Shown here one piece after another: positions 52,376 through 58,548 of a DNA stretch of 64,000 nucleotides. Source of the DNA: Victivallaceae bacterium (lineage in GTDB: Bacteria; Verrucomicrobiota; Lentisphaeria; Victivallales; Victivallaceae); contig JAKSOH010000001.1 of NCBI GenBank assembly GCA_024405675.1, positions 22,748-86,747 of the forward strand, in the 5' to 3' direction. A program made the position numbers and the translations under genes. The notes under the pieces were generated by a model that worked only from the letters and a program-made list of their open reading frames with translations, was not told the DNA's origin and did not search any database. The first letter of the stretch is position 1, and each line of letters starts with the position of its first letter.

Positions 52376-52948
52376 ATGAACCTTCACCGGGCGTCGCTGA
52401 TGTCGAAGACAAGTCTCGTCATGGTCATGATAGTCGTTTGCTGCGTGGCGCCTGGAGGCGTACTCAAGGCGGTTCCGGCTTCGGCCGCCGTGGCGAATCA
52501 GGTTGTTTCCGCACCGACATCGACGGCTGGAGTCGAAATGGTTCAGCAGGAGTTCACGCAGCACGATCTGAGACGCTGGGCCAAGAGCGGACTGGAGCGG
52601 GCAGGACGGCGCCAGGAACGCGTCGGGAGCGTCACGATTGTGGGGAAGTTTCCCGACGGCAGCTATGTCGTGGACGTGATGCGCGAAGGCGGAACCGTTG
52701 TCCGCGGGCGTCTTTACAAAGATCGCGCGCGCTATAAGATTGCGTTCGACCGCTCGAATCTCGGTATTCTCGAGGTGGATGTCCGGAACCGGAACAACGG
52801 GCGACGGTCTTGCAACAATGCCGATGTCATCGTGCGCAGGGCGCTGCGGGAGACTAGTAGCGGTGCTGCATTGCATGACGACGATTATGGAAGCGAACTA
52901 TTGAATTCAACTTTGGAAACAGGAGGTTGGGCAGATGACGAATATTAA
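52376..52948 (+). CDS. hypothetical exported protein (first gene of envelope lipoprotein cluster)
   Basis: The ATG lies 1 nt after the glnS stop, with AAGGGAAAG upstream. Hydrophobic signal/anchor SLVMVMIVVCCVAPGGVL. No motif recognised. Its end overlaps the next gene by 14 nt. Confidence 0.5.
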   Translation: MNLHRASLMSKTSLVMVMIVVCCVAPGGVLKAVPASAAVANQVVSAPTSTAGVEMVQQEFTQHDLRRWAKSGLERAGRRQERVGSVTIVGKFPDGSYVVDVMREGGTVVRGRLYKDRARYKIAFDRSNLGILEVDVRNRNNGRRSCNNADVIVRRALRETSSGAALHDDDYGSELLNSTLETGGWADDEY

Positions 52949-53960
52949 GTTTACGCTATCGGCGCTGGCGCTGTTGTCATTCGCGGCAATGGGCGCGGAT
53001 GCGCCATCCGTGCAACCCGCTCCGGCGGAGCAGTCCGCAAAAACAAACGTCCAGACGTCGGCACCGGTTGAGTCCGCGCAACAGCCGGTCGCCGCTCCTG
53101 CCGCGTCCGGTGATGCTGCTAAGACGGAGCAGTCCGCTTCTCCTGCCGGGACCAGCGCCTCGGCGCAGCCGGTTGAATCACCGGAACCCCCGGCTCCTCC
53201 AGAGCCTCCGGAATCGGCGATGCCGAGGGTCGCGGTGTTCCCGTTTTCCTGCATCGACATTCAGGGGCTCAATCTCAGCCGGTTCACCGACCGCATCGAA
53301 CCCAATCGTCGTTCTCAGGAAACGTTGGCAGAGACTGAGCGCGATCGCATGACGATCGACGAGAAGATGCTTGGAACCGTGCGCTCCATCGATGTGCGCG
53401 ACGAAGCGGACTATCGTCGGAACCTGAGAACCAGGCTCAACCGCGAAAACGACCGCAATCTTGCAAGGCAGCTCGAGATATACGACAAGATCGTCCAGTC
53501 GTCGTCCAGGACGATGGTCATCGGTGCCGAATATATGGAGGCCGAGCTCGGCCGCTACGACACCGTGGAGGTGGTTGATTCGTCATCCGTCCGCAAGGCG
53601 TTCTCCGAGATGAGGAACATCCAGGCCGGCGGACGCGTGCAGTGGTCCGATTTCAACGCCGTCGGCGCCACCCACATTCTCTATGGAATCGTCGCCGACA
53701 TGCGTACCGAGAGCAAACAGTTCTCCGGATACGGCGCCACCACCATAACGAACATTTATTCGCTTGACGTTCTCTTCAAGCTGGTGAACATCAGGACCGG
53801 TCAGGTCGATTTCTCCGGAGTCTACACCGGACATGACCGCGTGTTCCAGACCGAATATCTTTCCCAGATGGATAGCGACCGCTTCGGCAAGCTTATGAAG
53901 GACGCAGTCGCCCAGGCCGCTGCCGCCATTGACAGTAAATTCGAAAAGGAGAAGAAGTAA
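52935..53960 (+). CDS. exported CsgG/LpoB-like alpha-beta module protein with Pro/Ala/Ser-rich linker and charged insertion
   Basis: AGGAGG RBS. Signal peptide (SFAAMGA-DA). About 85 aa of low-complexity P/A/S/Q linker. CsgG-family-like pattern follows: RVAVFPF ... EAELGRYDTVEVVDSSSV ... GATHILYGIVADM ... LDVLFKLVNIRTGQV. Confidence 0.55.
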   Translation: MTNIKFTLSALALLSFAAMGADAPSVQPAPAEQSAKTNVQTSAPVESAQQPVAAPAASGDAAKTEQSASPAGTSASAQPVESPEPPAPPEPPESAMPRVAVFPFSCIDIQGLNLSRFTDRIEPNRRSQETLAETERDRMTIDEKMLGTVRSIDVRDEADYRRNLRTRLNRENDRNLARQLEIYDKIVQSSSRTMVIGAEYMEAELGRYDTVEVVDSSSVRKAFSEMRNIQAGGRVQWSDFNAVGATHILYGIVADMRTESKQFSGYGATTITNIYSLDVLFKLVNIRTGQVDFSGVYTGHDRVFQTEYLSQMDSDRFGKLMKDAVAQAAAAIDSKFEKEKK

Positions 53961-55313
53961 ATGCGTAGGATACTGACCCTTGTCGTCGCGGCATTCTGCC
54001 TTGTCTGCGGCAGCACCTCGCTTGGAGCTTTGAAGAATCCCGCCCGCAAGACGATTGCCGTCGCCGAGCCGCGCGCCCGCTCCGGAGTCAAGGCGGAGGA
54101 TGTCGCCGGCATCAGCGATTATCTCGAAAGCAAGCTCGGAGTCAAGTACGACGTCTACTCTAGGGCTTCGCTTAACGAAATGCTCAAGGAGGAGGCGTTC
54201 AACAATTCCGGAATGGTGCTTGACGACGCGACCAAGCAGCAGCTTGCCCAGGTCGCCGTCGACTACTTGCTGTCCTACTCGATTACCGCGAGCGGCGGAC
54301 GCATAACGATGACCATCACCGTCATCAATCGCGCCACCGGCGCCGTGATTCCCGGCGGAAGATCGAGCTTCTTCGCGCAGGATATCAACGGACTTTACGC
54401 CGGCATCGACGATGCGTTGAACCGCATGGGCATGCTAGACGTCGCCCAGCAACAGACCATGCGTATCGCCATCATGCCGACCAAGGGGTCTGCCACCACT
54501 TCCCCGGTGATGCTGCAGGGATTCAGCAGCAAGCTCGGGGAGTCGCTCCAGGCCTCCGGATTGTTTGAAATCGTTACCCGCACCGACCTTGAGACCATCG
54601 GAGCGGAGAGCAGCATGCTCAACAAGAGCAACGTCAACCAGGACGACCTGTACAAGATCGCTAGGCTGAACGTCGCGGATTATCTAGTCATAACGGAGCT
54701 CCCGGATTACAACAGCCGCGTGGTCGGAACTTCCGGCGGCTCGGATATCGCCGGCGCTTCTCTCAGCAGCGGCCGTCTGCAGATGTCATCCCGCACGGAA
54801 TTCCGTGTCGTCGAGGTCAAGACGGGCAAGATAATGGCCCAGGGATCTTTCCACTACGTGCTCAAGAGCACCGACATCAATGCCAGCGTGCGCCGCGACT
54901 GGGAGAAGGCCGACTACGACAATGCGTTCTGCGAGCGGGTCGCCGTCAAGGTGTCGCGAAAAATTCTCGACGCGATTGATCCCATCGTCGTCGTCGCGGT
55001 CGATGGCAATCAGGTCTATCTGTCGAGAAGTTCCGGCGTGCTGGTCGGCGAGGAATTCGAGATACGTGAGCGCGGCAAGGAAGCCGTCAACTCCATTACT
55101 GGACGCAGCCTCGGCATTCTTCCAGGGCGCAAGCTCGCAACTTGCCGTGTGACCGGAATGTCCGGCCAGATGGCCATCGCGCAACTCCTGGCAAAGCCGG
55201 TGGCGGATATTCAGGCCGGAGCCGAGTGCAAGCTAGTTGAATGGGAGACCACGGCGGATTCCGCCATGGTTCCTCAGGCTCCGGCAGCACCCGCATATCC
55301 GATGGCTTTCTAG
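53961..55313 (+). CDS. exported protein with two tandem CsgG/LpoB-like modules and a C-terminal beta-rich domain
   Basis: The ATG abuts the previous stop (taaATG). Module 1: KTIAVAEP...ISDYLESKL...VDYLLSYSIT...ITVINRATGAV. Module 2: RIAIMPT...LQASGLFEIVTRTDLE...VADYLVITEL...FRVVEVKTGKI. C-terminus VVAVDGNQVYLSRSSGVLVGEEFEI... Confidence 0.55.
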   Translation: MRRILTLVVAAFCLVCGSTSLGALKNPARKTIAVAEPRARSGVKAEDVAGISDYLESKLGVKYDVYSRASLNEMLKEEAFNNSGMVLDDATKQQLAQVAVDYLLSYSITASGGRITMTITVINRATGAVIPGGRSSFFAQDINGLYAGIDDALNRMGMLDVAQQQTMRIAIMPTKGSATTSPVMLQGFSSKLGESLQASGLFEIVTRTDLETIGAESSMLNKSNVNQDDLYKIARLNVADYLVITELPDYNSRVVGTSGGSDIAGASLSSGRLQMSSRTEFRVVEVKTGKIMAQGSFHYVLKSTDINASVRRDWEKADYDNAFCERVAVKVSRKILDAIDPIVVVAVDGNQVYLSRSSGVLVGEEFEIRERGKEAVNSITGRSLGILPGRKLATCRVTGMSGQMAIAQLLAKPVADIQAGAECKLVEWETTADSAMVPQAPAAPAYPMAF

Positions 55314-55316
55314 TTC

Positions 55317-57448: not shown

Positions 57449-57919
57449 ATGAGAAAGTCGATTATCGCAGTCGCAATCGCGGCGATTGGCATGTTGTTCG
57501 CAGGATGCCAGAACACCGTGAACACGATGGAGAACGAGGAAAAGGCGATGCGCCCGGCTATCGTCGACACGAAGCATTTTGTCAGCGATTCGTTTTGCAA
57601 CAATCGTCTGAAGCTCCTGTCGTTCCGCAAGTCGATTTCCCAGGGCGGAGTCATGGTCGTCCAGGCGGAACTGCGCAGCGAACGCTACGGATTCTTCCCC
57701 GAAATCTGGAGCTGGTGGCGTAATGACAATCCGTATCATGTCCTGTACCGTTTCGAGTGGCTGGACAGCAACGGAATGAACGTCGCGACCGCCGGGTCCG
57801 ACTGGGTGCCGGTCATCTTCATCCCGGGCGAAACCAAGTTTCTACGCGGTGTCGCTCCCAATAGCAGATGCAACGATTTCGTGCTTAGCGTAGTCGAAGA
57901 CGGACGTAATCGCAATTGA
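57449..57919 (+). CDS. YcfL-like (DUF1425) lipoprotein
   Basis: GAGGAG RBS. Lipobox LFAGC. LYRFEWLDSNGMNV matches E. coli YcfL HYRFYWYDARGLEM. The C-terminal strand pattern is also similar. Confidence 0.6.
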   Translation: MRKSIIAVAIAAIGMLFAGCQNTVNTMENEEKAMRPAIVDTKHFVSDSFCNNRLKLLSFRKSISQGGVMVVQAELRSERYGFFPEIWSWWRNDNPYHVLYRFEWLDSNGMNVATAGSDWVPVIFIPGETKFLRGVAPNSRCNDFVLSVVEDGRNRN

Positions 57920-57945
57920 TAATGTTTAATAGGAAAGGAAGAAAA

Positions 57946-58548
57946 ATGAAGTACATGTCTATTTTTTGCAGTGCATGCCTCGCCATGCTGGTTGCCGGAT
58001 GCGGAAGCGCCGCTAAGCGCATCGATACCGGAACGCAGGGAATCACCACCGTCGGAGCCGTCGACGCCCGCGATTGGCAGGAGGTTTCGGTGAAGGCTGT
58101 CAACTCCTTGCTGGAGTCCGGCGTTCTGGTTCGCGCCGATGGTCGCAAGTCCATTGTCATGGTCAACCAGGTCAAGAACAATACCGGAACCAATGCGCCA
58201 ACGCAGATCCTGACTAACAAGATGCGTCAGGCCCTTCTTTCGTCCGGCAAGGCTTTGACCTCTACCGCCGTCGGTGGAGCCGGACCGGAGGATGCCGCGA
58301 CCAGACAAGTGCGCGAGCTTGAGAACGACGATCTCTTCAATCAGGCCACTGTGCAGAAGCGCGGCACGGTTATTTCACCGGACTTCAGTCTTTCTGGAGA
58401 AATCGTCAAACAGCAGTCTAACTCCGGGCGCACGATCGAGGCGGCATTCTATTTCCACGTGGTACTTACCGATCTGAGCACCGGTCTCGCCGTGTGGGAA
58501 GACACGTTCGACGTCGCCAAGCAGGCTACCTCCGGTTTCTTCTATTGA
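57946..58548 (+). CDS. LpoB-like (COG3417/PF13036) lipoprotein, copy 2
   Basis: AAGGAAG RBS. Lipobox LVAGC. Paralogue of 56822-57421, sharing the near-identical block LENDDLFNQATVQKRGTVI. Confidence 0.7.
   Translation: MKYMSIFCSACLAMLVAGCGSAAKRIDTGTQGITTVGAVDARDWQEVSVKAVNSLLESGVLVRADGRKSIVMVNQVKNNTGTNAPTQILTNKMRQALLSSGKALTSTAVGGAGPEDAATRQVRELENDDLFNQATVQKRGTVISPDFSLSGEIVKQQSNSGRTIEAAFYFHVVLTDLSTGLAVWEDTFDVAKQATSGFFY

Follow-up and report, generated by a model that had tools for sequence, protein, structure and literature searches.

The stretch of DNA that is analysed here, which we refer to as the window, is a 64-kb stretch of a metagenome-assembled genome (MAG) of the Victivallaceae (Lentisphaeria, Planctomycetes-Verrucomicrobia-Chlamydiae (PVC) group), and our analysis is concerned with a cluster of seven open reading frames (ORFs) that it contains, named P1 to P7 in the order in which they occur. 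The cluster is made of two layers: a core of four lipoprotein genes (P4-P7), which belongs to a widespread type of module, and a set of three genes for exported proteins (P1-P3), which is specific to one clade. The seven ORFs are the following, with lengths given in amino acids (aa):

52376..52948, forward strand: P1, 190 aa, a small exported or membrane-anchored protein
52935..53960, forward strand: P2, 341 aa, exported, non-lipidated, with a FlgT_M/CsgG-type module
53961..55313, forward strand: P3, 450 aa, exported, non-lipidated, with two TolB-N/CsgG-type modules and a FlgT_C/TsaP-type domain
55317..56825, forward strand: P4, a 502-aa lipoprotein with a helical N-terminal half that resembles tetratricopeptide repeats (TPR)
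56822..57421, forward strand: P5, a 199-aa LpoB-family lipoprotein, paralogue type 1, with a short linker
57449..57919, forward strand: P6, a 156-aa YcfL/DUF1425-family lipoprotein of the Cj0090 immunoglobulin (Ig)-fold type
57946..58548, forward strand: P7, a 200-aa LpoB-family lipoprotein, paralogue type 2

All seven ORFs are co-directional and are separated by -14, 0, 3, -4, 27 and 26 nucleotides (nt), with P4 starting 3 nt past the stop codon of P3; the same coordinates and the same spacing had been given in a preliminary description of the cluster. A purine-rich, Shine-Dalgarno-like stretch is located 5' of six of the seven starts, and an in-frame ATG at 52343 may be an alternative to the P1 start at 52376. 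The preliminary description had also attributed signal peptides to all seven proteins and canonical lipoboxes to four of them, and we have recovered both: the lipoboxes FAGC (P4), AGGC (P5), FAGC (P6) and VAGC (P7) are all present, their cysteine being kept in the homologues, while the N-termini of P1, P2 and P3 are hydrophobic, signal-like segments, as judged by inspection.

The order of the genes has been compared across related loci from two metagenome contigs (L001, L002), one MAG contig (L003), six GTDB Lentisphaeria species (L004-L009), two more distant contigs (L015, L016) and eight further metagenome contigs (L020-L027); one GTDB Lentisphaeria contig ends after P3, and L020-L027 have been compared as far as the contigs reach. 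In every related locus examined the order P1-P7 is identical, at protein identities to the window of about 35-48%; the flanking genes vary between loci, and none of the relatives has glnS, the gene that precedes P1 in the window, upstream. Since the order is conserved and the flanks differ, the cluster is a selected unit, and its abutment on glnS is specific to this genome; a fortuitous adjacency of the genes, which had been kept in mind when the cluster was first described, does not agree with the single gene order found in all relatives. The seven genes make up a single conserved unit, which is probably an operon. Where the contig extends far enough, the P1-P3 set has never been seen without P4, and P1-P3 have been found only in this Lentisphaeria clade by word-indexed and pattern-based searches with P2 and P3, which are insensitive to remote homologues. 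The cluster is carried by MAGs of uncultured gut and rumen bacteria.

The proteins of the core, P4-P7, are the ones that can be assigned most directly to families. P5 and P7 match the Pfam family LpoB (PF13036) with E-values of 1.3e-26 (93.7 bits) and 1.3e-27 (97.0 bits), respectively, at a cut-off of 22.3 bits, and P6 matches the Pfam family DUF1425 (PF07233) with an E-value of 6.8e-13 (48.8 bits, cut-off 28.3) over profile positions 39-95 of 96; the LpoB and YcfL assignments that had been proposed for these three proteins are therefore all backed by matches above the Pfam cut-off. With the NCBIfam LpoB equivalog TIGR02722 (cut-off 110.55 bits), P7 scores 111.1 bits, just at the cut-off, and P5 scores 101.8 bits, below it. 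The profile built from P5 and P7 aligns with the whole globular domain of E. coli LpoB (E 1.4e-4), at an identity of only about 22%; the profile is needed for this comparison, as the single sequence of P7 finds no match among the PDB sequences. P5 and P7 are not interchangeable copies, i.e. they form separate orthologue groups that occupy fixed positions in all loci. In both proteins the Pfam domain begins about 25 residues past the lipobox cysteine, whereas the aligned domain of E. coli LpoB begins at about residue 59-78.

LpoB activates the penicillin-binding protein (PBP) PBP1B in Enterobacterales and, to our knowledge, the activation of PBP1B has been demonstrated only for enterobacterial and Vibrio LpoB proteins; among the ten nearest neighbours of the cluster that were scanned with Pfam, there is no PBP. 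Judged by their sequences, we regard P5 and P7 as LpoB-family proteins, rather than as demonstrated activators of PBP1B, and their lipoboxes (AGGC and VAGC), with the conserved cysteine, suggest that both are outer-membrane lipoproteins. P4 had been described as a TPR-like lipoprotein, in agreement with its lipobox and with weak TPR matches in Pfam; searches of Pfam, NCBIfam and the PDB assign no family to it, and its own profile retrieves 1080 representative clusters at E<=1e-3, most of which are full-length, at about 470-500 aa. P6, in addition to its Pfam match, finds the PDB structure 4GIO (E 1.5e-3), which is that of Cj0090 (PMC7857515).

The same families are found next to each other far from the window. 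In the four distant P4-family loci L010, L012, L013 and L014, a DUF1425 gene follows the P4-family gene in all four, and an LpoB gene, in one or two copies, lies downstream or nearby in three, while the contig of L013 ends in a partial ORF that is matched by the hidden Markov models (HMMs) of P5 and P7; homologues of P1, P2 and P3 are absent within 8 kb in each of the four. In L010 (6034-9937), one strand carries the P4-family and DUF1425 genes, and a single LpoB-like gene is located divergently upstream; the arrangement is simpler, and the lineage may be a fairly close one. This LpoB-like gene is 49% identical to P7 and stands beside a PpiC-type rotamase; MurB/Ddl is found just downstream.

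A further locus, that of Aeromonas caviae (L019; NZ_AP026896.1, 3086795-3095946), links the core of the window with a better known arrangement: its order is P4-family lipoprotein, ycfL, LpoB-family gene and thiK-like kinase, i.e. the order of E. coli b1104-b1106 (ycfL-lpoB-thiK) with a P4-family gene added. The Aeromonas P4-family member aligns with P4 over 424 columns (hhalign Prob 97%, E 1e-10), its LpoB-family protein with P7 (E 3e-10) and its YcfL with P6 (E 3e-8). Altogether, five of five distant P4-family members stand beside a DUF1425 gene and four of five beside an LpoB gene, the contig of the fifth being cut off. It follows from the distant loci and from the Aeromonas matches that P4-P7 are the form that a very widespread module takes in this lineage, with the genes reordered and the LpoB-like gene duplicated. 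The preliminary description had regarded the whole cluster as an expanded hybrid; we find instead that it is not uniform, but consists of the widespread P4-P7 core and the clade-specific P1-P3. As a separate observation, NZ_AP026896.1 is a 4.94-Mb "plasmid" entry of PLSDB with 18 annotated features; by its size it resembles a chromosome, and the P4-family, ycfL, LpoB and thiK-like genes are unannotated in it.

Of the clade-specific proteins, P3 comprises two TolB-N/CsgG-type modules (residues ~28-163 and ~164-340), followed by a beta domain of the FlgT_C/TsaP type (residues ~340-425); the two modules represent a duplication within the protein (hhalign, residues 28-163 against residues 164-340, Prob 95.7%, E 9e-9). 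P3 had been called CsgG-like, and at the level of Pfam this holds: residues 176-311 match CsgG (PF03783) with an E-value of 1.8e-18 (67.1 bits, cut-off 20.8), CsgG is above threshold in all eight P3 homologues, seven of which are also matched by LpoB, and an identical P3 entry from a Victivallaceae MAG (GCA_024500545.1) is named "CsgG/HfaB family protein" at NCBI. The match covers profile positions 29-162 of 210 only. At the level of structure, the resemblance is closest to FlgT: the AlphaFold2 (AF2) model of P3, with a predicted local distance difference test (pLDDT) score of 70, contains two alpha/beta modules and a C-terminal beta domain, and its best Foldseek matches are the Vibrio FlgT 3w1e and the LPHT ring 8z5n (E 4e-14, ~290 columns), followed by CT253, TolB-N, HpaA, GNA1162, CsgG and PelC. 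The C-terminal domain points the same way, since the P3 profile matches TsaP (3jc8, 6ve2) over residues 349-410 (E 3e-5) and FlgT_C is found in two of five P3 homologues (5e-4 and 2.8e-3, below the Pfam cut-off); FlgT_N has no match in P3.

The CsgG channel is built from two amphipathic beta hairpins per protomer (TM1 and TM2), which together form the barrel, and P3 has been compared with CsgG at these positions. The hairpin between the core strands of module 2 aligns with TM1 without gaps and has an equal length, but Gly, Ser and Ala are abundant in it, and its residues 257-270 are modelled with low confidence; the region equivalent to TM2 consists of a loop and helices in the AF2 monomer model, which is of moderate confidence, and a reading of the sequences finds P3 shorter than CsgG across this stretch. 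A simple amphipathicity calculation does not separate the membrane hairpins of CsgG from the hairpins of P2 and P3, and it is used here as evidence neither way. P3 has no canonical lipobox, and the signal peptides of its homologues contain no conserved cysteine; because of the missing cysteine, P3 is not considered a lipoprotein. "FlgT-like" is a better description of P3 than "CsgG channel".

Two side observations concern the C-terminal region of P3. At its very end (55280-55310), the motif P-x-Y-P-x-A is invariant in eight of eight homologues (P444, Y446, P447, A449), preceded by a segment with little conservation and predicted disorder; the motif might serve for docking or sorting. A P3-like C-terminal region also occurs in a distant, 508-aa CsgG-family protein that is encoded on a high-GC metagenome contig (L028, 7245-8771) and matches CsgG profile positions 8-208 of 210; its gene is located between those of a 1905-aa exosortase/TPR protein and a PAS/GAF histidine kinase, and YcfL or LpoB genes are absent nearby.

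P2 consists of a signal peptide, a linker and one alpha/beta module of the FlgT_M/CsgG type with a long helical insertion; the module carries a long beta hairpin, with predicted strands of 19 and 18 residues and a conserved F-x-G-Y-G at the tip. P2 itself has no significant Pfam family, but six of its seven homologues are matched by FlgT_M (best 7e-6) and five of the seven by CsgG (best 5e-6). The AF2 model of the domain (pLDDT 69) finds Cj1090c (LptE-like), CsgG, the FlgT/LPHT ring and HpaA with Foldseek, all at about 2e-5, and P2 aligns with module 2 of P3 (hhalign E 3e-4). A match of P2 to GltJ (NCBIfam, E 0.023) is confined to the low-complexity Pro/Ala linker and has been rejected as compositional.

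In an alignment of nine homologues, P1 begins with a hydrophobic segment, which a variable linker joins to a conserved domain of ~75 aa; profile searches give no credible Pfam or PDB match, and P1 thus remains the 190-aa protein without a family that it had been in the preliminary description. A likeness to PepSY, seen by eye, is backed by no tool result and is not claimed. In all loci that carry it, the P1 homologue is the first gene of the cluster, and a lipobox-like AGC or CSC is present in some of the homologues. The C-terminal tail of P1 (~45 aa, 52814-52948), which overlaps the start of P2 by 14 nt, occurs in none of eight homologues, and of the linker of P2 that follows the signal peptide (53000-53220; ~75 aa, rich in Ala, Pro, Gln and Ser) relatives have a far shorter version or none; the tail and the linker are both low-complexity additions that are specific to this genome.

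The small alpha/beta module had been reported to occur five times in the cluster, i.e. once in P2, twice in P3 and once in each of P5 and P7. At the level of the TolB-N/LptE/CsgG/LpoB superfamily this count stands; a direct hhalign comparison of the P2/P3 modules with the P5/P7 alignments stays below significance (Prob below 1%), which is explained by the small depth of the alignments (Neff about 2). The kinship of the P2/P3 modules with P5 and P7 rests on Pfam profiles and folds. Outer-membrane lipoproteins that resemble LptE, PelC, CsgG and PqiC have an alpha/beta core in common, and several of them form rings (PMC13631591).

The cluster is bounded by the following two features:

50674..52374 (start approximate), forward strand: glnS, glutaminyl-tRNA synthetase, matched by Pfam tRNA-synt_1c (1.4e-102) and both C-terminal domains; context only
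58683..58709, forward strand: intrinsic-terminator-like hairpin and T-run, seen in the sequence and in the ViennaRNA fold; end of the cluster

The TAA of glnS occupies 52372-52374 and the ATG of P1 begins at 52376, so that the distance of 1 nt noted earlier can be read directly in the sequence. The terminator, previously placed at 58684-58709, is present at about 58683-58709 as AAGAGCGGC-CTTGT-GCCGCTTTT, followed by a T-run; its stem is GC-rich and 9 bp long, and the fold of 58670-58715 (46 nt, with the terminator inside) has an energy of -15.8 kcal/mol in ViennaRNA. A generic consensus scanner does not list this terminator, and the promoter matches of the consensus scanner are not above chance expectation. 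The spacer between the P7 stop and the terminator (58549-58683) measures ~135 nt and contains a perfect 12-nt palindrome, GGCGATATCGCC, at 58561-58572. Among the ten nearest neighbours (Pfam scan), the upstream genes are housekeeping genes: ClpB, an epimerase, RibF, GTP-PEPCK and GlnRS. Directly 3' of the terminator, two tandem paralogues of ~450 aa are encoded on the forward strand (58884-60251 and 60256-61590), which match the N-terminal part of the neutral/alkaline ceramidase family PF04734 without reaching the gathering score (E 5.6e-7 and 2e-7); the first of them (58884-60251) has a signal-like N-terminus in a longer ORF.

What the cluster may do is best considered by starting from its composition. 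The reading that we find most likely, and that we hold tentatively as a whole statement, is that P1-P7 form an outer-membrane-tethered periplasmic scaffold for the maintenance of the envelope and its peptidoglycan, and not a secretion pore. Its compositional part, i.e. the gene structure, the family and fold assignments, the two-layer distribution and the synteny, is observed, and is much firmer than its functional part, in which we infer the formation of a complex, its localisation, its oligomerisation and its link to peptidoglycan. We arrive at this reading for four reasons: four lipoproteins and three exported proteins are encoded in one conserved unit; the core module gives envelope phenotypes elsewhere; the module of P2 and P3 builds rings below the outer membrane in FlgT, TsaP, CsgG, PelC and PqiC; and P3 has the domain order of FlgT.

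In such a scaffold, the four lipoproteins P4-P7 would anchor the assembly to the outer membrane, on its inner face, and the TPR protein and the LpoB-like proteins could contact enzymes that remodel or synthesise peptidoglycan, by analogy with LpoB and with what has been proposed for HP0018 in H. pylori. The second layer would consist of P1, as a small anchored protein, and of P2 and P3, as soluble periplasmic proteins built of the TolB-N/CsgG/FlgT_M module; by analogy with FlgT, TsaP, PelC and CsgG, P2 and P3 may oligomerise to a periplasmic ring or lattice that would organise or stabilise the contact between the lipoproteins and the enzymes.

Several points weigh against the scaffold. LpoB and TolB-N have the same fold and are monomeric, so that a ring cannot be deduced from the fold. 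The AF2 models are moderate (pLDDT about 70, built from 7-8 sequences), and the TM-scores between P3 and FlgT are low (0.26-0.33), a result that, as far as the models go, is compatible with domains that match one by one but are oriented differently to each other. P5 and P7 are devoid of the ~55-residue disordered linker through which E. coli LpoB reaches PBP1B. The link of P4 to Cj0089 and HP0018 is drawn from gene context, published descriptions and the Aeromonas intermediate, and the co-transcription of the operon is deduced from gene spacing only.

Of the alternatives, the one that survives best is that the cluster holds two independent neighbouring units: P4-P7 would be an ordinary YcfL/LpoB module, possibly activating a class A PBP, and P1-P3 would have an unrelated periplasmic function. 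This would agree with the P4-P7-type modules that occur without P1-P3 in other lineages, with the distant CsgG-family protein of L028, which has a C-terminal extension and stands alone in an unrelated context, and with the score of P7 above the NCBIfam LpoB equivalog cut-off. On the other hand, P4 directly follows P3 in the window and, wherever the contig extends, in L001-L009, L015, L016 and L020-L027; the junctions in the window measure 0-3 nt, and the linkage has been kept at 35-48% identity despite unrelated flanks, all of which makes two independent units unlikely.

A periplasmic collar around a trans-envelope machine, e.g. around the secretin of type II secretion or of a type IV pilus, is a possible arrangement with still lower odds. 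Such collars are known from TsaP around PilQ and from FlgT around the flagellar L/P rings, and the domain organisation of P3, its best structural matches (the FlgT/LPHT ring, and also TsaP) and the resemblance of P2 to FlgT_M would all suit such a role; nevertheless, nothing in the gene context supports it, as Pfam scans of the cluster, of its ten nearest neighbours and of the flanks of related loci contain no flagellar family and no secretin or pilus gene, and P3 is without the LysM domain of TsaP.

Least probable, by our estimate, is the channel that the preliminary description had offered as an option, in which P3, perhaps together with P2, would oligomerise as an outer-membrane channel of the CsgG/HfaB type and insert its hairpins, with the lipoproteins in accessory or gating roles, to export a periplasmic substrate (P1, for instance, or the product of a gene outside the cluster): the CsgG scores of P3 and of its eight homologues, the NCBI label, the hairpin of TM1 length and the long hairpin of P2 with its conserved tip do favour it, but P3 has neither a lipid anchor nor more than one of the two membrane hairpins of CsgG in the model, that one hairpin is Gly/Ser/Ala-rich and of low confidence, the CsgG profile is matched in part, P3 is structurally closest to FlgT, a soluble ring protein, rather than to CsgG, and CsgE, CsgF and curlin families are absent from the seven proteins and from the ten nearest neighbours (Pfam).

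Returning to the outer-membrane-tethered scaffold, one particular form of it deserves mention, although we consider it unlikely: the seven proteins would assemble below the outer membrane of Lentisphaeria into a periplasmic ring or cage that resembles the H ring but is non-flagellar and has not been described before, with P2 and P3 as the ring, the lipoproteins as its tether and a coupling to the remodelling of peptidoglycan. If such a ring or cage existed, it would give a structural role to the widespread and unexplained module of YcfL, LpoB-like and P4-family proteins. YcfL/DUF1425 proteins, LpoB-family proteins (outside Enterobacterales and Vibrio) and TPR lipoproteins of ~480 aa form a widespread neighbourhood with no established mechanism, and the functional hints for this core module are confined to adhesion and colonisation defects in Campylobacter and to vesiculation and cell-shape defects in H. 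pylori. That the core module is joined here in a fixed order to proteins that resemble ring builders suggests the idea that the module may belong to an organised, outer-membrane-associated structure rather than consist of independent lipoproteins. The cluster also offers an example from the PVC lineage for the comparison of envelope architectures, with a practical impact that is limited.

The comparison of the cluster with known systems has found none that covers all seven genes, in line with the earlier remark that no characterised system matches, and literature searches have found no paper that describes this seven-gene cluster; partial likenesses exist to four systems. The first is CsgG (PF03783, 4uv3), with which P3 has in common a score above the Pfam threshold, the alpha/beta core and a hairpin of TM1 length, but from which it differs in the partial profile match, in the TM2 hairpin, which is not modelled in P3, and in the lipid anchor, given that the sequence of E. 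coli CsgG contains the lipobox LSGC and that of P3 contains none.

The second likeness is to the ring builders FlgT (3w1e, 8z5n) and TsaP of type IV pili (3jc8, 6ve2), which are periplasmic and are themselves non-lipidated. P3 has a TolB-N-like alpha/beta module followed by a FlgT_C-type beta domain, in the order of FlgT, and its profile matches TsaP, while the homologues of P2 match FlgT_M; the differences are the extra N-terminal alpha/beta module of P3 and the absence of the FlgT_N and LysM domains from it.

The third likeness is to the gammaproteobacterial ycfL-lpoB(-thiK) loci, where a YcfL/DUF1425 gene is located beside an LpoB-family gene and, in Aeromonas, a P4-family gene is located directly upstream. 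The ycfL-lpoB-thiK locus of E. coli differs in having no P4-family gene, and E. coli LpoB differs from P5 and P7 in its ~55-residue disordered linker and in sequence (~22% identity).

The fourth likeness, which had already been suggested in the preliminary description, is to the cj0089-cj0090-cj0091 operon of Campylobacter, and it is borne out by the match of P6 to 4GIO and by the published composition of the operon: the three genes are co-transcribed and encode a TPR lipoprotein of 453 aa and two smaller lipoproteins of 122 aa and 207 aa, with Cj0089 found in the inner-membrane fraction and Cj0091 in the outer-membrane fraction, and a cj0091 mutant shows weaker adhesion and colonisation (PMC3100323). 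Cj0091 has been called an orthologue of the H. pylori LpoB homologue HP1457; the deletion of HP0018, the homologue of Cj0089, leads to chains of outer-membrane vesicles and to less helical cells, HP0018 co-precipitates MltD and AmiA, and in other Helicobacter species the gene of the HP0018 homologue precedes that of the LpoB homologue (PMC11394524). The window differs from this operon in its order (TPR-LpoB-YcfL-LpoB), in the doubling of the LpoB-like gene and in the placement of P1-P3 before the core; what the two have in common is a large TPR-like lipoprotein, an Ig-fold lipoprotein and an LpoB-family lipoprotein, and a role in the envelope such as that of the operon is also proposed for the window's cluster.

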